Assembly (NCBI GenBank): GCA_963664705.1
Contig: OY761556.1
Coordinates: 4,192,001 to 4,256,000 of the forward strand
Direction of reading: 5' to 3'
Length of the DNA: 64,000 nucleotides
Origin: Acidobacteriota bacterium
Lineage (GTDB): Bacteria > Acidobacteriota > UBA6911
Made by a program: the position numbers and the translations under genes. A model generated the notes under the pieces. That model saw only the letters and a list, made by a program, of their open reading frames with translations, did not search any database and was not told where the DNA came from. This document shows positions 14,624 to 25,458 of the stretch, one piece after another (the stretch's first letter is position 1; each line of letters opens with the position of its first letter).

Positions 14624-14827
14624 ATGAAAGAACAAGGCACAGTAAAATGGTTTAACAATGAAAAGGGATATGGTTTCATCAGCCGCGGATCCGGCGATGA
14701 CGTATTCGTTCATCATTCTGCAATACAGGCCAAAGGCTTCCGTTCTCTGAACGAGGGCGACACAGTCGAGTTCTCCGTAACAAAAGGCCCCAAGGGTCTG
14801 CAGGCCACGGAAGTAGTGAAACTGTAA
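14624..14827 (+). CDS. cspA: Cold shock protein
   Basis: [38 protein letters not shown]. Confidence 0.97.
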
Positions 14828-15186: not shown

Positions 15187-16938
15187 TCAATGGTTTTCGT
15201 AAGCGCCGGCCACATCCTCGCTACTGCCGCCCGCATTGTCTGAGCCGGCCGGAGCCTTGGCCAGCCACCGGTCAATCGACGCCGTTGCCGTACAATCAAA
15301 ATCAGAGATTTTCCAAAGGGGGCTGGTCTCACCCCCCACTACCAGAATGTTTACCTTATCTGGCCGATGATAGGGTGCGATCATCGCATCCCCTGGCAGC
15401 TGTTTCCAGGATGCGTAGGGTTGAACGCCGCTCATCGCAAGCGGGGCGACAAGCATATCGATCATATCGTTGGCCCAGAACTGCTGCGCCGTCATTTTGA
15501 TGTTTTCCGAAATCCATCGCCCCATATCGAGAGGCGTCTGGAATCCTTCCAATTCCTTCAGATTTCTCGCCAGCATTGGATCCAGTATCAGAGTGGCGCC
15601 GGAATAGAGGGCAGGAAGCGCCTGCATCTGCAGCTTGACTTCATCGCCCCACGAACGCCGCGCGGCCGCCCCCATGCTGTTGATCAGATTCCATCCGCGG
15701 AACAGGCTGACGACGCTTTCTTCCCGCTTGTGCCCTTTACGTACGTGAAATGGCTCCCAGACGCTGCGCTCTTCATTCTCGGCCATACAAAGATTGTTGT
15801 AGGAATAGTTGTTTCCTTGGGACGACCAGAAGGTTCTCTTGCGCCGGGCATAGCCCCATATGATGCTCATCAGCGTCCACGCCCGCCCGATAACGGCATT
15901 AGCCGGGTTGTAAGGCCCCAGGGCGCCCATCCCGCAATTCATGCCAATTTCGTTGCGAATCGGGCCATTGACCACGATAGCGCTGGCGAAAGGAAGCGTC
16001 GAGGGCTGAATGGCAGGTTGACCGGTTGATGCGATAGCCAACAGCACCGGCAAATGCTCGGGCATGGCTCCTGCCATCACGGCCGCAATAGCCACCGTTT
16101 CCACGGACACGCGCAAATTCTCCTGCGTATCCACCATGAACGATTTGCCGACCAGTTTGTCCGCAGGCTGACGCGTCCCTGCGAGCATGCGTGCAACGCG
16201 TTCTTCTGTCGGGAGAATAATGGGCAACCCGTCGCTCCACCCCTTCTGCAGAAAGAGGCGCTGCAGGTTCTCCTCGCTGTCCGCGAGCAAAAAGCGCTCC
16301 CGCGAGGGAACCGGTCGAACCACCGTGAGATTCCTGCTTTCCTCCGCCGAATAAGGCGTTGTCAGCGCCTGCAACACTTCATCAACCAGGCGCTTCCCTG
16401 TCATCGGATTTTTCCCTTCGATATATCCGCGCAATGACGAAGGAGGCATCGACACGACAGGGTGCGGAGTGTACAGGAATCGCAGAGGCACCCCGTAAAA
16501 GTCCGTATCCTCACGAACAACACTCTCGAACTCGACTGTTGAAAGGGGCGCGGTAGGAATTCCGTACTTCAGCTCAAGCGTGCGGCAACATCCGGCGACC
16601 GCCGTAACACAGCCCGGTCAGCCCGCCACGCCGAAAATAACGGCATCCCCCTTCTCCTTGATTTCCTTCCACAGATCGGAGGTGTCGTCCCTGAATATAA
16701 ACCCCGTCTTGCGTCTCAGGACCGTTTTTACCGTCGGCATGTGCTCCGCGAACCATGCCTGAAACTGCTCCATGAAAACATCGCTCCCGCCAAAGCCCTG
16801 ATTCACCAGGTACACGGTTTTCCCATTCAAGGTATCCAGACGCGGCGCCATCGACCACGAGGGAACTCCCGCACCGGAACCTTCAGAGGCCGGCGTTCGT
16901 TGGGCTTCAGGATTTAACACTGCAGAAATTGTGGCCAT
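15187..16938 (-). CDS. UGSC-family-like selenoprotein, 583 aa, Sec at codon 107 (U-P-G-C)
   Basis: Track ORFs 16618-16980 and 15187-16491 are in frame and separated by one TGA (16620-16618). Read-through gives GDAVIFGVAG-U-PGCVTAVAGCCRTLELKYGIPT. SD AAAGGAG precedes ATG 16938. Downstream domain has GWSDGLPIILPTEERV. Confidence 0.85.
16584..16617 (-). promoter_or_regulatory. Putative bacterial SECIS element
   Basis: After UGA: GGCUGUGU-UA-CGGC(GGUC)GCCG-G-AUGUUGCC. The apical GGUC loop starts 18 nt after the UGA. Confidence 0.7.
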
Positions 16939-17075
16939 CGGGAACAGCTCCTTTCGAACCGGGCATGTCACTACCGGCATTTTGACGCTATTATATCAAT
17001 AGCTGCCAGAACTCAAAGGCTCCAGAAATGCCATTTGTGCCCTCCCTCTCCTCCGGAGCCTGAGGAAAATTTGTA

Positions 17076-17131: not shown

Positions 17132-17509
17132 ATGAAACAATCTGAAGAAAACAAGAAGCTGCTCCTGAAGATCTTTGAAATGCAGTGTGAAATCTGCAAA
17201 GCGCTGGGCCACCCGCAGCGCCTGGCGATCGTTGACCGGCTTAAGGAAGGAGAGGCGGCTGCCGCGGATCTGATCCAGGAGCTTGAATTGTCCAAAGCGA
17301 ACCTCTCCAAGCATATGACTCTGCTCGCACACAGCGGTATCGTGGACTCGCGTCGGGACGGCAGGCAGATCTACTACCGGCTGGCAGATCCTGAAATCCA
17401 CGAGGCCTGCTCGATGATGCGATCTATTTTGTATCGCCGGCTGAAGCAGGGAGAGAAATTGGCTTCAGCAATCCATTCGTCCACAGCACTGTCGGCTAAA
17501 GCGAAATAG
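17132..17509 (+). CDS. ArsR/SmtB family transcriptional repressor
   Basis: CKALGHPQRLAIV...SKANLSKHM...RRDGRQIYYRL. Cys in CEIC and EAC. Confidence 0.93.
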   Translation: MKQSEENKKLLLKIFEMQCEICKALGHPQRLAIVDRLKEGEAAAADLIQELELSKANLSKHMTLLAHSGIVDSRRDGRQIYYRLADPEIHEACSMMRSILYRRLKQGEKLASAIHSSTALSAKAK

Positions 17510-17529
17510 CAATACCTTGCGAGTGATCT

Positions 17530-18897
17530 ATGAAAAATAAAACTCACTACACAATTTGGGCTTTGGTTCTTATCGGTCTCCTTGTCAGTTTTTCTGCGAG
17601 CGCCCAGCAGAAGCTCTCGCTCTCGGAAGCAGTATCGCGCACTCTGGCAAAAAACCCGGACCTTGCGGTGGATGCCCCTGGCCAGAATGCAGCCCGTTCG
17701 GAATACGCGGCCACGCGAGCCGGATACCTGCCACGCATCGATTTCGAGCAATCCTATCTCGCGGGCGACAATCCCGTGTTCGTATTCGGCACGCTGCTGA
17801 CCCAGCGCAAATTCACGGCCGCCAATTTTGCACTTCCTTCGCTCAATAACCCCGATTCTGTCGACAATCTGCAGACGCGAGGCACCCTGCAACAGAACAT
17901 CTGGGATTTCGGAAGGACAGCCAACCGCCGTGAGCAGGCGCGATTGGGCATAAACATGGCCGACCAGGCAACGCAGGAACATCGCAGGCAGGTATTGCTG
18001 GATCTCTTTGGCAGCTACTATGTCACATCTCTTGCGAGCGATGCCATGCAAACGGCACAAGCGGCTTTGCGCTCTGCGGAATCGATAGAAAAACAGGCCA
18101 AAGCCAGGGTCGATAGCGGACTTGCCGTGGAGGCGGATCTGCTGCGAAGCCGCGTATACCTGTCGACGGCAAAACAACAGGAGATCCAAGCTCAAGGACA
18201 ACTGGAGGCTGCCAGGGCACAGCTGAACAGAGTCATGGGGGAAGCACTGACCGCGCAGACAGGCGAGACAGCGCCTTTGACCATCAAAGCCATCTCGCTC
18301 CCGTTGGAAGACGCGCTTCTCTCGGAACAAAAACGCAATCGCCCGGATTATCAGAATCTACTGACCGAGCTTCGCCAGGCGGAGCTTGCGGTCAACGCTC
18401 GTTCCAAGGAGAAACTCCCGGTTCTTGCCGGTTATACCACGTGGGAAATGGACAATCCTTCCATGAGCGAGTTTGGCGGCAGCAACTGGGCAGCCGGGAT
18501 TACGCTGCGCTGGAATCTGTTTGCCGGCGGGAGCGATGCAGCACAGCTTGAGGCCGCCCGTCACCGTCTGGAACAGAAAAAGCGCCAGATTGCGGCCATG
18601 GATTCGGCCATGGCGCTCGAGCTTCGCAGGGCTATGATTCAGTACCGGGCGGCCGAACAGCAGGTTGCCGCAGCCCAGGCAGCACAGGCTCAGAGTGAAG
18701 AAGGGCTTCGTATCCTGCGAAACCGGTATGATGCCGGGCTGGCCACCATGACCGATTTGCTTTCCGCGGAAGCCGCGCGCAGCGCGGCACGCACGGGCCT
18801 CGCCGAAGCGATTTATCGCCAGCGTGTCAGCTATGCACAGGTTGAATTTGCCGCCGGCATCCTGAGCCCATCATCGCCGGCCATGAATCTGCAGTAG
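17530..18897 (+). CDS. TolC family outer membrane efflux protein
   Basis: Signal peptide and OEP repeats (YLPRID, RYDAGLATMTDLLSAE). Confidence 0.92.
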   Translation: MKNKTHYTIWALVLIGLLVSFSASAQQKLSLSEAVSRTLAKNPDLAVDAPGQNAARSEYAATRAGYLPRIDFEQSYLAGDNPVFVFGTLLTQRKFTAANFALPSLNNPDSVDNLQTRGTLQQNIWDFGRTANRREQARLGINMADQATQEHRRQVLLDLFGSYYVTSLASDAMQTAQAALRSAESIEKQAKARVDSGLAVEADLLRSRVYLSTAKQQEIQAQGQLEAARAQLNRVMGEALTAQTGETAPLTIKAISLPLEDALLSEQKRNRPDYQNLLTELRQAELAVNARSKEKLPVLAGYTTWEMDNPSMSEFGGSNWAAGITLRWNLFAGGSDAAQLEAARHRLEQKKRQIAAMDSAMALELRRAMIQYRAAEQQVAAAQAAQAQSEEGLRILRNRYDAGLATMTDLLSAEAARSAARTGLAEAIYRQRVSYAQVEFAAGILSPSSPAMNLQ

Positions 18898-18962
18898 CTA
18901 CCAGATAAAGCGGAGCTTCAGAAATGCACAGCATCCAGATTTTTATGACAACGAGGCAAAAC

Positions 18963-20150
18963 ATGAAATCCAAGCTACTAATACTATTTGCCGTTTCAGG
19001 ACTCTTCATCCAAATAGCCTGCAGTGAAAAACCGGTGGCCAAACAGGAAGCGACCCTGACGCCGGTGCCCGCGGCTACGCTCTCGATGCGCTATGAATCG
19101 GTTCCGGGAGTGGTGCAGGCACCAGGCACTGTTCAGGCGCGGGATCGCATTGCACTCTCCTCACAGATCAATGGATTTGTCAGACAGGTGCACGTTCATG
19201 TCGGCGACATCGTGAAGAAGGATCAGCTCCTGGCCACCCTGGATGCACGGGATGCCCAGAGCCAGAAGGCGGCAGCGCAGGCTGCGGTCGACGAAGCACA
19301 GGCAGCTCTCTCCGAAGCCCGTAAAGCCCGCCAGGCCGCGTTGGATATGCAGGCGGCGACAAAAGCAGGTACCGAGCTGGCAAACCAGACTCTCGCCCGA
19401 TATCAAAAGCTGTCGGAATCGCGGTCCGTTTCCCCGCAGGAACTCGATGAAGTGCGGACGCGGCGCGACGCGAGCACCGCCGAGCTGGCATCACGCGAGG
19501 CGATGGTATCCGCAGCGGACGATCGCATCCGACAGGTAGAAGCGAAGATAGCGCAGGCAAAAGCTCAATCCGGGCGCACGGATGTTCTTTTGAGCTGGAC
19601 GGAAATCCAGGCTCCCGCATCGGGTAGAATCGTCCAGAGACTGGTGGATCCCGGTACGGCTATCTTTCCGGGAACTCCCCTGGTAGTCATAGAATCCACG
19701 GACAAGCCACAGGTGGTGGCGGATATCCCAACCGAACACGCCCATCTCCTTAAAATCGGTGCGGCAGTCCGTCTTCGAATGGCTGATTCGGATGGTGAAG
19801 GACGCGTTTCAGAGATCGTCCCACTGTCGGATCCTGGAACCCACAGCATTCAGTTCAAAGTAGATCTCCCGGCCCGTGCTTCAATGCCAAGTGGCCAATT
19901 CGTAAAAGTAGAAGTCCCCTCAGGGACGCGCGATGCCCTGCTTGCTCCGCGCGCCTCTGTGCGACAGACCGGGCAACTCACAGGCATGTTTGTCGTGGAT
20001 AACATGGCGAAGGCTCATTTCCGCCTTGTAAAGGTTGCTCCCTTTGATGCGGATCGCGTTGAGATCCTCTCCGGCATCAACTCAGGAGAAAAAATCGTGG
20101 CCGCTTTGAGCGACCAGGTCATCGATGGCATTCCGGTTGTGGAACGTTAA
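18963..20150 (+). CDS. RND periplasmic adaptor (MFP), lipoprotein
   Basis: Lipobox IAC, lipoyl half-motifs (VHVGDIVKKDQLL, IQAPASG), long coiled coil. Alternative start at 18924. Confidence 0.92.
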   Translation: MKSKLLILFAVSGLFIQIACSEKPVAKQEATLTPVPAATLSMRYESVPGVVQAPGTVQARDRIALSSQINGFVRQVHVHVGDIVKKDQLLATLDARDAQSQKAAAQAAVDEAQAALSEARKARQAALDMQAATKAGTELANQTLARYQKLSESRSVSPQELDEVRTRRDASTAELASREAMVSAADDRIRQVEAKIAQAKAQSGRTDVLLSWTEIQAPASGRIVQRLVDPGTAIFPGTPLVVIESTDKPQVVADIPTEHAHLLKIGAAVRLRMADSDGEGRVSEIVPLSDPGTHSIQFKVDLPARASMPSGQFVKVEVPSGTRDALLAPRASVRQTGQLTGMFVVDNMAKAHFRLVKVAPFDADRVEILSGINSGEKIVAALSDQVIDGIPVVER

Positions 20151-20162
20151 GGAGATCCGGAT

Positions 20163-23100
20163 ATGAGCAAACCCCAAATCGCAGGCAGTCTGGCTCACGC
20201 CTTCATCAAATCCAAGCTGACTCCCCTTTTCCTGATCGCCTCCATCGCGTTGGGAATTGCGGCTGTAGTGCTTCTACCACGGGAAGAAGAGCCGCAGATC
20301 ATCGTGCCGATGATAGATGTGATGGTCTCATTCCCCGGTGCATCCGCAAAAGATGTTGAAACACGGATCACCCGGCCGATGGAGCGTCTTCTGTGGGAAA
20401 TTCCGGGCGTGGAATATGTGTATACCACATCAAGCCCGGGCTCGAGCGTCGCAATTGTCCGCTTCTATGTTGGAGAGGACGAGGAAAAGAGCATTGTCCG
20501 TCTGAATCAGAAAATGTTCGCAAATTTCGATCTGATTCCGCCGGGCGCCTCTCAACCCCTGATCAAACCGCGATCCATTGATGATGTTCCATTCCTGGCG
20601 CTTACGCTCTGGAGTCGGGAACTGGACGGATTTCAGATCCGTCGGGCAGCTGCCGAGTTACGCAATGAACTTCAGCAGATACCGGACATATCGGCAACGC
20701 AGTTGATTGGCGGGCAGAAACGCACCCTGCTGGTCGAACCGGATCCGGAAAAGATGGCCGCCTACGGTGTCAGCTCCTCCAGAATTCAGGGCGCACTGCA
20801 AATGGAGAACCGCGAGACGCATGCCGGCATCGTCACTCACAATAATGAAGCCTTCTCCATTCACCTGGACGGTTTCTTTAAAAATAGCGATGACCTGGGA
20901 AACCTGGTGGTTGGAGTTCAGTCCAATGCTCCGGTTTACCTCCGCAATGTCGCCACCATTTCGGATGGCCCGGCAGAGCCGTCGGAATATGTATTCTTCT
21001 CGCCCGGACCATCCGCTAAAGCAAAGGGAATCGAGATCCCGCAGACGGCCAGCGCCTCTGCCGGCCTCCCTTCCAGTACCGGCATTGGTGCGGCTATCGG
21101 CAATGATCTGATTCCCGGAGTCACGATCACATTTGCCAAAAGAAAAGGCAAAAATGCGGTCGTGCTGTCGGAAGAGGTTCTCAGGAGAGCGGAAAGTTTC
21201 CGCGCGCACAACTTCCCGGCTTCGCTGCAGATGACGGTGACCCGCAACTACGGGGAGACGGCAGCGGAAAAATCCAACGAACTGCTTCTTCACATGATGA
21301 TTGCCGTCATCTCCGTAACGATCCTGATCTGGCTGGTTCTCGGATTCAGGGAATCGGGAGTAGTAGCGGTAGCGATCCCGGTAACCCTGGCACTGACGCT
21401 TGTCGTGTTCCTGCTCTATGGATATACGCTGAACCGCATTACGCTGTTTGCGCTGATTTTCTCTATCGGGATCCTTGTCGATGATGCGATCGTCGTCATA
21501 GAAAATATCGTTCGCCACAAACGGATGCCTGAGAACCGCAATCGATCGTTCACCGATGTTGCAGTTGAAGCGGTCGATGAAGTCGGAAATCCGACCATTC
21601 TGGCAACCTTCACCGTCATCGCGGCCATTCTGCCGATGGCTATGGTGCGTGGATTGATGGGCCCCTACATGCGCCCAATACCCATCGGGGCATCCGCGGC
21701 CATGATCTTCTCTCTCCTGGTGGCGTTTGTGATTACGCCATGGGCGGCCCTGCGTTTCCTGCGCGGATCTCATGTCGGTCACCACGAGGGTGAAACGGAA
21801 GACCGCACGACCCGTTTGTACCGATGGTTCATGGGCAAGCTGTTGGCCAACGCAAAAAATCAGTGGATGTTCCTGGGCCTGGTCGTTGTATTGCTGATCG
21901 CCGCCATGAGCACGGTCTATTTCAAATTTGTCATCGTCAAGATGCTGCCGTTCGATAACAAAAGCGAGTTCCAGGTCATTGTAGATATGCCGGAAGGCAC
22001 AAGTCTGGAAGAGACCGCAGCCGCCACGCGCGCGCTTGCCGTCAAGCTGAATCAGGTGCCGGAAATTACGGATTACGAAATGTATGTCGGAACCGCTTCG
22101 CCGTTCAACTTCAACGGACTGGTCCGGCATTACTACATGCGCAGCGGAGAGAATGTAGCGGATATTCAGGTCAATCTCACTCCGAAGGGAGCTCGATCGG
22201 ATCAAAGCCATGCCATAGCACGGCGGGTACGGGATCTCCTGAAGCCGGTAGCTGAGCAGTACGGCATCCGCATGAAGGTGGCGGAGGTTCCTCCTGGCCC
22301 GCCGGTATTGCAGACGCTGGTGGCAGAGGTATACGGGCCCAGTTACGATCGGCAGATTGAACTGGCCGCCCAGCTGCGATCAATGCTGGAAAAAACTCCG
22401 GGCGTAGTCGACGTGGATTGGTATGTCGAAGATCCGCAACCGGAAATGCTCTTCCACTTCAACCGACTGAAAGCCTCCATGGCGGGCGTTTCAATTGCCG
22501 AGGCACAACAGGCGGTTGCGCTGGGCATCAGCGGAGCACAGGCAGGACTGCTGCATGCGGCGGATGAAGCAGAGGATGTTCCTATCAAACTGAGGCTCCC
22601 GTTGGGCGAGCGCTCCAGCATTGAATCACTTTCCCGGCTCCGCGTTTCATCGGCCACCGGCAAACTGGTACCGCTTGGAGAGTTGGGATACTGGGAAAAA
22701 TCCTCCCGCGAAAGAAACATCTATCACAAGAATCTGATGCCCGTCGTTTATGTAACGGCAGATGTCGCAGGCCGCGAAGAAAGCCCTGTTTATCCAATTC
22801 TGAACATGGACGAGCAGATAACAAAAATGAAACTGCCCGAGGGCTACCGTCTCCAGACCTATACTGCGCAGCAGCCTTCGGAAACAAACCGGCTCGGAAT
22901 GAAGTGGGATGGAGAATGGCATATTACCTACGAAGTGTTCCGGGATTTGGGCCTTGCGTTTGCAGCCGTTCTCGTCCTGATCTACATTCTCGTGGTAGCC
23001 TGGTTTCAGAGCTTTAAGACACCGCTGGTTATCATGGCGGCCATTCCCTTCTCGCTGGTTGGCATACTTCCCGGCCATTGGGCAATGGGCGCATTCTTCA

Positions 23101-23456
23101 CCGCAACCTCCATGATCGGATTCATCGCCGGAGCAGGAATTGTGGTCAGAAATTCGATCATTCTGGTGGATTTCATTGAGTTGCGGCTCAGTATGGGCGA
23201 ATCATTGCAGCAGGCGGTAATCGACGCCGGTGCCGTGCGCTTCCGCCCCATGCTGTTGACCGCTGCCGCCGTAGTCGTGGGCTCCGCCGTAATCCTGTTT
23301 GACCCGATATTCCAGGGACTGGCTATTTCGTTGATGGCCGGAGAGGTCGCATCCCTTCTCCTCAGCCGAATGACGGTACCGGTCCTGTTTTACATGATGC
23401 GTCGCCGGGAATTGAAGCATCACCCCATGCCGCCAAACCCGGCGGTAACTGCATAG
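20163..23456 (+). CDS. RND efflux permease (AcrB/CzcA family)
   Basis: [31 protein letters not shown]. 1097 aa with two TM bundles. Confidence 0.95.
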
Positions 23457-23472
23457 AAAGTAAGGAGACATT

Positions 23473-23685
23473 ATGACTGTAGAAAGATTGATACGCCTGA
23501 TGGCCGGAAGCTTCATCCTGATCAGCCTTGGACTGGCCCATTGGGTCAATCCCAACTGGCTCTGGTTCACGGCTTTCGTGGGCGCAAACCTATTCCAGTC
23601 TTCCCTCACCCGCTGGTGCCTGATGGAAGACATACTGGTCAAACTGGGAGTGAAGAGGGAAACATCCTGTTCCACCGGAAAGTAA
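23473..23685 (+). CDS. DUF2892 / YgaP-like small membrane protein
   Basis: ER.IRLMAG...FVGANLFQS.LT.WC signature. Confidence 0.88.
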   Translation: MTVERLIRLMAGSFILISLGLAHWVNPNWLWFTAFVGANLFQSSLTRWCLMEDILVKLGVKRETSCSTGK

Positions 23686-23769
23686 AAACCATTTCGGTCA
23701 CAGGGCGCGAAGGCAAATATTCACGCTTCAGGCCTTCGCACCCGCAGGACCATTCATCAGGATAATGCT

Positions 23770-25458
23770 ATGAAGATTGTTGTCATCGGAGGTGTAGCCG
23801 CCGGACCAAAAGCCGCATCCAAAATTATGCGGTTGAGGCCGGATGCAGATATCACGGTCATAGAAAAGGGAGCCTTTCTCTCCTATGCGGGATGCGGGCT
23901 TCCCTACTACGTTTCGGGAGCAATCAAGGAACAAAGAGAACTCATGGAAACGCCGGCCGGCGTCGTGCGCGATGCGGCGTTTTTCCTGAACGTGAAGAAC
24001 CTGAAGGTCCAGAGCCACACTGAGGTGACGGAGATTGACCGTGCAGGAAAGCAGGTGCACACCAAGAGCCTGACCAACGGGGCGGAATCCTGGCTTCCAT
24101 ATGACAGGCTCATTCTGGCCACAGGCGCATCACCGATAATCCCCCCTATCCCGGGCGTGGACAAAAAGAACGTTTTCACGCTGCATGGAGTCCATGATGC
24201 GGAGGGAATCAAGTCGGTATTGTCCGAAGGCAAAGCCAAGGATGTGGTCATCATTGGTGGTGGCTTGATTGGAGTGGAAGCGACCGAAGCACTGGCAACC
24301 CACGGCTGCCGCGTGACCATTGTCGAGATGATGCCACAGATACTGGGTCTGCTTGACTGGGAAGTTGCACGCCTGGTGGAGCGATACATGGAATCCAAAG
24401 GCGTCAGGATACTGACCGGCACACGCGCGCTGTCCCTGGATTCCCGCGATGGAAATGATGCATTTGCCTCCGTGGTGCGAACCGATAAGGGCGATTTGCC
24501 GGCGGATATGGTTATCCTCGCCATTGGGGTGCGGCCCAATGTTTCCCTGGCCCGGCAGGCCGGGCTTGCCATCGGCGATAAAACCGGCGCAATCCAGGTG
24601 GATGATCACATGCGCACCTCCGACCCTGATATCTACGCGGCCGGCGATTGCGTCGAATGCCTGGACCGGTTGACCGGAACTCCCTGTTATGTCCCGCTGG
24701 GTTCCACCGCCAATAAGCAGGGACGCATTGCCGCTTTGAACATCTGCGGCGGCAACGAGGTCTTTCCTGGAATCCTGGGAAGCTCGATATGCAAAGTTTT
24801 CGACTACTGCGTTGCCAAAACAGGGATGAATGAACGCACAGCAAAAGCGCTGGGATATGATTACATTACGGCCATGGCTCCCGGCGCCGACAAAGCGCAC
24901 TACATGCCTGAATCAAAAACTCTGCTGATCAAGCTATTGGCCGATCGGAAAACGGGCAGACTGCTGGGCGTTCAATTGACCGGACCGGGAGAGGGAGCTA
25001 AGCGCATCGATGTCGCGGCAACGGCGATCTCGGCGGGAATGACGCTGGATCAACTGGCCAACCTGGATCTGTCCTACGCACCACCCTATGCCTCCGCGAT
25101 GGACAACCTGATAACCGCCGCCAACGTGGCCCGCAATAAAAGGGACGGCTACATGGCCGGAATTTCGGCCGAATCCGTGCTCCACAAGATCGAAAACGGA
25201 GAGGATTTCTTCTTCCTCGATGTCCGTTCTCCGCAGGAGTATTCGCAGATGCATCTGCCAAAATCAACGCTGATCCCCCTGGGCGCTCTGCGCAGACGGC
25301 TCGCCGAAATACCGATGGACAAAGAAGTCATAACCTATTGTGCGGTATCGCTGCGCGGCTATGAAGCATCCCTGGTCCTGAAAGCCGCCGGTTTCCGCAA
25401 CGTAAGGGTGTTGGATGGCGGAATAGCCATGTGGCCCTACGAAAAGTTGTCCGGGTAA
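23770..25458 (+). CDS. CoA-disulfide/persulfide reductase with C-terminal rhodanese domain
   Basis: GGVAAG FAD motif, SYAGCGLPY redox Cys, YAPPY, rhodanese (LDVRSPQE, YCAVSLRG, LDGG). Confidence 0.92.
   Translation: MKIVVIGGVAAGPKAASKIMRLRPDADITVIEKGAFLSYAGCGLPYYVSGAIKEQRELMETPAGVVRDAAFFLNVKNLKVQSHTEVTEIDRAGKQVHTKSLTNGAESWLPYDRLILATGASPIIPPIPGVDKKNVFTLHGVHDAEGIKSVLSEGKAKDVVIIGGGLIGVEATEALATHGCRVTIVEMMPQILGLLDWEVARLVERYMESKGVRILTGTRALSLDSRDGNDAFASVVRTDKGDLPADMVILAIGVRPNVSLARQAGLAIGDKTGAIQVDDHMRTSDPDIYAAGDCVECLDRLTGTPCYVPLGSTANKQGRIAALNICGGNEVFPGILGSSICKVFDYCVAKTGMNERTAKALGYDYITAMAPGADKAHYMPESKTLLIKLLADRKTGRLLGVQLTGPGEGAKRIDVAATAISAGMTLDQLANLDLSYAPPYASAMDNLITAANVARNKRDGYMAGISAESVLHKIENGEDFFFLDVRSPQEYSQMHLPKSTLIPLGALRRRLAEIPMDKEVITYCAVSLRGYEASLVLKAAGFRNVRVLDGGIAMWPYEKLSG

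Follow-up and report, generated by a model that had tools for sequence, protein, structure and literature searches.

A minus-strand gene at positions 15187..16938 of the window (the whole analyzed stretch of 64,000 nucleotides) almost certainly encodes a selenoprotein of 583 amino acids, in which a UGSC-type domain is joined to an Unknown_1 (GWSDGLP) domain and which lacks a signal-peptide-like start. Taken alone, this gene is an ordinary hidden selenoprotein gene of known family and architecture; what is striking is the genus-wide expansion to which it belongs. Judged by its sequence, it is filed here as a variant of the UGSC/Unknown_1 fusion, characterized by a UPGC motif, a CC pair and a likely cytoplasmic location. 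This UPGC/CC variant within the genus-wide expansion is likely new: an incomplete search of the literature found no report of the expansion, none of UGSC proteins being exported and none of a link between these proteins and GrdB, and the main text of a preprint on UBA6911 genomics (10.1101/2021.04.09.439258) contains neither "selen" nor "UGSC".

Reading frame and gene start

The frame 16938-15187 comprises 583 codons, the sole internal TGA being codon 107 (16620-16618), which is separated by 42 sense codons from a GTG at 16491. Translation through the TGA gives the UxxC motif as U107-P-G-C110, with a C117-C118 pair further on. The preliminary description had reported the single TGA, the 42 sense codons, the motif and the CC pair, and translation bears out all of them. 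It had also anticipated that gene callers would report two fragments. Standard ORF calling indeed splits the gene into pieces of 120 and 434 amino acids, the corresponding entry in a public protein collection is a 420-aa piece, and the other 119 relatives among the matches listed (of 4765) are likewise cut, being 396-475 amino acids long with a query coverage of only 67-81%. The large number of such genes in the family (see below) also means that, in this lineage, callers truncate genes by the dozen in a genome.

The ATG at 16938 is preferred as the start over the ATG at 16980, because a Shine-Dalgarno-like AAGGAG (16948..16953, minus strand) lies 9 nt upstream of it and because the orthologues share this start position. 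They also lack a hydrophobic leader, and the protein is likely cytoplasmic.

Conservation of the TGA and of the hairpin

One-to-one orthologues with 75-85% identity are present in 19 of the 29 other genomes of the genus. For the comparisons below, 29 loci were pooled and 9 duplicates dropped, leaving 20 distinct sequences with the window gene included; one frameshifted record (L062), which also shows the TGA, was excluded. The TGA at codon 107 (16618..16620, minus strand) and the Cys110 codon (16609..16611, minus strand) are retained in all 20 orthologues, and among the 35 paralogues of the same genome in 31 and 32, respectively. In the pair encoded at 16585..16590 (minus strand), C118 occurs in all 20 orthologues and C117 in 19 of them; the pair is absent from all other paralogues, that is, among paralogues it is seen only in the subfamily of the window copy. 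Like C118, C384 is invariant across the 20 orthologues. By these sequence comparisons, the window copy belongs to a conserved, one-per-genome subfamily with extra cysteines.

Downstream of the TGA lies a putative SECIS core hairpin, CGGC-GGUC-GCCG (16593..16604, minus strand), whose loop begins at +18, i.e. after a 17-nt spacer. Its folding energy does not stand out against shuffled sequences (z = +0.55 and -0.32) or against synonymous recodings (p = 0.64), and the hairpin was therefore judged by conservation. Among the 219 fourfold-degenerate columns of the 20 orthologues, in which the mean frequency of the major base is 0.61, only four are invariant, and these fall in codons 112-115, which form the stem and loop of the hairpin. 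As the genomes are kin, no formal p-value was assigned to this pattern, and its localization was taken as decisive. The hairpin also fits the consensus model of a 2026 selenoprotein review (PMC13188914), which gives a loop of 3-9 nt with G as its first or second base, a spacing of 16-37 nt, a stem of at least 4 bp and an MFE of -7.5 or lower; the values found here are a GGUC loop, a spacing of 17, a 4-bp stem and a segment MFE of -14.7.

The preliminary description had proposed selenocysteine read-through directed by this hairpin, and had suggested looking for a cysteine homologue and for the Sec machinery. Both were found: an alphaproteobacterial homologue with 41% identity (L063) carries TGT (Cys) in place of the TGA, and selA, selB, selD and tRNA-Sec are each present twice in the genome. 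Together with the conserved TGA and the frozen silent sites, these data indicate that codon 107 is almost certainly read as selenocysteine. A sequencing error in particular is very unlikely, because every one of the 20 orthologues has the TGA. That the TGA is a true stop, making the locus a pseudogene, two separate proteins or an error, could draw on the weak folding energy, on sequencing reads that do not reach the TGA and on the separate UGSC and partner genes of other bacteria, but is barely credible given a TGA that falls inside the Pfam UGSC domain, its retention in every orthologue with silent-site freezing confined to the hairpin, the Cys in L063 and a complete, duplicated Sec machinery.

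Selenocysteine machinery and other selenoproteins of the genome

The genome is a single contig of 6.89 Mb, with marker-based estimates of 98% completeness and 6% contamination. All eight Sec-machinery genes score above their family cut-offs. One set forms a compact selB-selA-selD-tRNA-Sec cluster at 3072623-3078500, beside an arsenite-methyltransferase-like selenoprotein gene, and the second is dispersed (3461774, 3657373, 2046792 and 6559014), its selD carrying a TGA. ARAGORN also reports a third tRNA, short at 72 nt and with the anticodon TCA (1625651-1625722, minus strand), which is absent from the Rfam tRNA-Sec listing.

At least about 42 selenoprotein genes were listed, 31 of which, about three quarters, come from the UGSC/Unknown_1 family. 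The count derives from a by-eye screen in which 10 of 16 scanned candidates were added as members of known selenoprotein families, along with SelD; five of the 16 were dropped for want of support, and this second screen replaced a first de novo screen that proved too noisy. Other exported-looking selenoproteins of the genome are thioredoxin-like, DUF1573 and UshA-like proteins. The largest whole bacterial selenoproteomes given in PMC13188914 comprise 57 and 63 genes, maxima that are approached here largely through one family, which supplies about 31 of about 42 genes in this genome and has about 40 copies with a TGA in a sister genome.

A separate observation concerns a MetE-like (PF01717) gene at 4603874-4604977 (minus strand), which has an in-frame TGA in the context RTFM-U-ATLAT, followed by a conserved hairpin, ACCCGC-CGTGAT-GCGGGT, and which retains intact HVC and PDCG motifs. 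Five other genomes of the genus share the TGA, and a homologue in genome G036 has TGT. The text of the 2026 review (PMC13188914) does not contain the phrase "methionine synthase".

Domain composition and predicted structure

The N-terminal domain (approximately residues 28-198; 16345..16857, minus strand) was delimited by Pfam, a structural model, structure search and HHalign. Pfam PF24696 (UGSC) matches residues 28-170 with 58.3 bits (gathering cut-off 25), in agreement with the UGSC-type assignment of the preliminary description. The NCBIfam equivalog NF041046 (UGSC_fam) yields 46.2 bits for the whole protein and 49.3 for the N-domain alone, below its cut-off of 125, and 147.9 for a stand-alone UGSC control (L146).

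The fusion of this domain to the GWSDGLP domain, pointed out in the preliminary description, is real but not new, having been described in 2008 by Zhang and Gladyshev as UGSC fused N-terminally to "Unknown_1" (PMC2398784, Fig. S1A). The Unknown_1 motif shown there, AVNxVMAG..PEYMP..NGP, matches residues ~283-330 by eye. Outside the bacterial family of this genome, the C-domain is found within 1.5 kb flanks in 18 of 25 UGSC loci, being fused in one of them. The two domains belong together, as their pairing by fusion or adjacency in these 18 loci shows.

The full-length model has a pLDDT of 89 and a pTM of 0.89 and is consistent with a defined two-domain arrangement. It shows the N-domain as a parallel beta-alpha sandwich in which U107 sits where the third strand ends and a helix begins. 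A structure search with residues 36-199 listed flavodoxin- and receiver-like matches (best Z 10.2, rmsd 2.9, 121 aligned residues), and no thioredoxin appeared among the best 50 matches listed.

The C-terminal Unknown_1 domain (approximately residues 214-560; 15259..16299, minus strand) was modelled alone with a pLDDT of 91.6 and has no Pfam family and no clear structural match. Pfam gave no meaningful family for 44 C-domains, and Foldseek returned nothing at E <= 0.001 for the C-domain and, for the full model, a best E of 4e-4 (FtsZ, TM 0.15, rmsd 20). VIA-align of the C-domain reached a best Z of 5.6 (rmsd 6.2, 144 aligned), which is in the noise range and does not by itself prove a new fold. 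Searches of PDB sequences found no match with the protein and one with the profile, at E 1.1. Across the paralogues, whose C-domains share a median identity of 36%, D236, S313, G351-R352 and E387 are nearly invariant, as expected of an active or binding site, and the segments between the conserved residues differ by clade.

Paralogous expansion in the genus

Full-length members of the family number 35 in this genome, 31 of them with a TGA at the same column, and their motifs include USSC, UDGC, UGSC, USVC and UDSC. Assessed by hydropathy and by eye, 28 have signal-peptide-like starts, one a twin-arginine-like start and five none, and one is unclear; among the TGA copies only two, including the window copy, lack a signal-peptide-like start. 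A hairpin of -3 kcal/mol or better qualifies in 21 of the 31 TGA paralogues, compared with 23% of 1350 control TGA ends, and 10 of the 31 beat synonymous recoding at p < 0.05. By the rule applied here, six of the 31 have no hairpin or only a distant one, namely five GDUGSCTK copies and one other. Four of the 35 paralogues lack Sec.

The expansion extends over the genus: all 24 same-genus genomes drawn contain 9-45 matches, compared with one match each in two of 16 genomes from other families of the class, and 138 of the 150 matches listed in the same-genus and class search have one TGA. Outside the genus, a phylum-wide draw, which scored 13 candidates per genome so that some counts may be low, gave 1-2 matches in 20 of 249 genomes; a full re-search of one of the genomes outside the genus (G111) found two. 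A sister genome within the genus (G043, 8% contamination) has 77 matches, with a TGA at any position in about 40 of those listed.

The paralogues are old: their median C-domain identity is 36% and only 3 of 595 pairs exceed 90%. Selfish recent amplification was accordingly rejected as the main explanation, given the few near-identical pairs, the low median identity and the one-to-one orthologues of the subfamilies. In a midpoint-rooted FastTree phylogeny, the window copy groups with its orthologues (support 0.999), in a clade with UDGC copies (0.99).

Several individual copies deserve mention. A paralogue at 444274-446028 (minus strand; L024), from which both the U and the second Cys are missing, exceeds the window copy in conservation (88-93% C-domain identity across 120 database relatives) and lies downstream of genes for an aldehyde:ferredoxin-oxidoreductase-like protein and an Fe-S protein; given this conservation, some function of the family is independent of UxxC. 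The copies at 3995117-3996931 and 6758042-6759841 (L040 and L049) have 99.7% identical C-domains and are each followed by a 204-codon ORF with no assigned family; an ORF of similar size also follows the copy in L051, and immediately upstream of the L049 copy is a gene for a DUF1573 selenoprotein. The UDGC paralogues at 1803282 and 6870429 have a C-x-D-G-x-C tail that is absent from other paralogues.

Gene neighborhoods

No neighbors shared between the window and the orthologue loci were found, and neighbor families recur in at most 4 of the 21 orthologue loci. In the window, the selenoprotein gene is convergent with a gene at 14624-14827 (plus strand), which from its motif we take to be of the cold-shock type. 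The divergent upstream genes at 17132-25458 (plus strand) encode an ArsR-type regulator, an outer-membrane efflux protein, RND-like proteins and a fusion of an FAD/NAD oxidoreductase with a rhodanese. An operon hypothesis was rejected, since the flanking SDR gene, the cold-shock gene, the ArsR/RND cluster and a CoA-disulfide-reductase-like gene are not kept beside the orthologues. The 77 neighbors of paralogues that were scanned have mixed functions, and five of them are aldehyde:ferredoxin oxidoreductase-like or xanthine-dehydrogenase-like genes.

Relationship to GrdB and possible functions

A profile of 35 N-domains was compared by HHalign with a profile of 27 GrdB/PrdB-like sequences, built from 30 PF07355 loci with L107, L115 and L121 left out. 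The alignment spans 69 columns (probability 90.2, E 1.5e-6) and places U on U and C on C, with a reversed control at 0.3. Searches with the whole PF07355 model gave no match in this genome and matches in 37 of 151 genomes drawn. By this profile evidence, the Sec region is homologous to that of GrdB/PrdB, and the protein itself is not a GrdB member. Separately, about one in four of the Acidobacteriota genomes drawn has small PrdB-like proteins (L095-L123), most with a TGA in (L/V)VPV-U-PxC.

The reading we prefer, with a probability of roughly 0.4, is that the window protein is a self-contained GrdB-like reductase. SelB would bind the hairpin and insert Sec107. With the C-domain holding a small substrate, the selenolate, positioned where a helix of the flavodoxin-like domain begins, would attack it and cleave a carbon-heteroatom or sulfur bond. 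The resulting adduct would be resolved by Cys110 to a selenenylsulfide, and thiol reductants of the cell would re-reduce this, possibly through Cys117/Cys118; C118, C384 and the nearly invariant C117 could relay electrons. The C-domain, with a substrate site at D236, S313, G351-R352 and E387, would fill the substrate-binding role of the pyruvoyl subunit in GrdE/PrdA systems, and the 35 diverged paralogues, most of them predicted to be exported, would form a panel with different substrates. Against the reductase stand the lack of any clue to a substrate among the neighbors of orthologues or paralogues, a GrdB match of only 69 columns with no GrdE/PrdA or GrdA found, the Sec-free paralogues and the high conservation of the one lacking both U and C. 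The window protein would be a convenient choice for an initial assay, since it unites both domains in one chain, is likely cytoplasmic, has been modelled with confidence and is linked to GrdB.

A wider and more tentative extension of the reductase proposal is that UGSC plus Unknown_1 might be a second, pyruvoyl-free class of GrdB-type selenoenzymes on an undescribed fold, which one Acidobacteriota genus would have multiplied to 30-40 Sec copies per genome, as a mostly exported, substrate-diversified reductase panel dominating the selenoproteome, with the window gene as a conserved cytoplasmic member that has its own cysteine relay.

The UPGC variant named in the preliminary description is present, and the redox role attributed there to the protein stays at the level of inference. 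As one alternative, the protein would be a Se-dependent thiol-disulfide or peroxide oxidoreductase, whose UxxC exchanges with disulfides of proteins or small molecules, whose C-domain picks the clients and whose exported copies keep the envelope redox state. This is possible, though on balance improbable: the UxxC motif itself, the thioredoxin-like fold assumed in PMC2398784, the 28 of 35 paralogues with signal-peptide-like starts and the other exported-looking selenoproteins would suit it, but the predicted parallel beta-alpha sandwich has flavodoxin-like best matches, the sequence relative is GrdB/PrdB, and thirty deeply diverged copies with one-to-one orthologues suit substrate specificity more than generic redox buffering. 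Sulfur or selenium transfer, or a C-S lyase-type reaction in which an organosulfur substrate in the C-domain passes a persulfide-like or alkyl group to Sec as its carrier, seems unlikely; a Sec nucleophile with a resolving Cys, the invariant C118 and C384 and the oxidoreductase-like genes near some paralogues are compatible with it, but those genes are not common to most copies and no rhodanese or desulfurase homology was found in the protein. Least probable among the functional alternatives is non-catalytic metal or metalloid binding, sensing or selenium storage, with exported copies scavenging or buffering thiophilic metals, for which high copy number, export, the extra CC and the conservation of Sec-free paralogues could be cited, but a conserved 350-aa partner domain and homology to GrdB suggest catalysis, and the neighbors scanned show no conserved link with transporters or resistance genes.

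Comparison with known systems

The E. coli fdhF SECIS has a GGUC-containing loop at nearly the same distance from the UGA. As in bacterial SECIS elements of the fdhF/FdhA type, a small loop beginning with G follows the UGA after 17 nt in the window gene (FdhA of the same genome has a GGTCT loop after 18 nt), whereas the core stem is just 4 bp (-5.0 kcal/mol alone).

The relationship to GrdB/PrdB is confined to the Sec region, where a strand, U-x-x-C, a helix, E-x-x-G-I-P and a later R...PHP are held in common. In proline reductase, according to PMC11229817, the Sec of PrdB attacks a substrate carbon while a partner subunit holds the substrate, and a U-to-C replacement in PrdB abolished activity. 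In contrast to GrdB/PrdB, the window protein has a different 350-aa domain, no pyruvoyl partner (GrdE/PrdA) and no GrdA were found in four genus genomes (G000, G006, G021 and G043) in a search that did find them in a positive control (G029), and most paralogues look exported.

Within the UGSC family, which PMC13188914 lists without a function, the UxxC of the window gene occupies the column typical of the family, but the motif is U-P-G-C and not the literal U-G-S-C of NF041046. The N-domain is predicted to be flavodoxin-like, unlike the thioredoxin-like fold assumed for UGSC in PMC2398784. The conserved Cys highlighted in the Unknown_1 alignment of that source (MAGC) corresponds to Ala291; at this column, 31 of the 35 paralogues have Ala and 3 have Cys. 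Compared with the published UGSC/Unknown_1 fusion, the window gene has UPGC and the additional C117/C118, and whereas a single UGSC sequence is reported for Olavius (PMC1976440), it is one of 35 copies in its genome.
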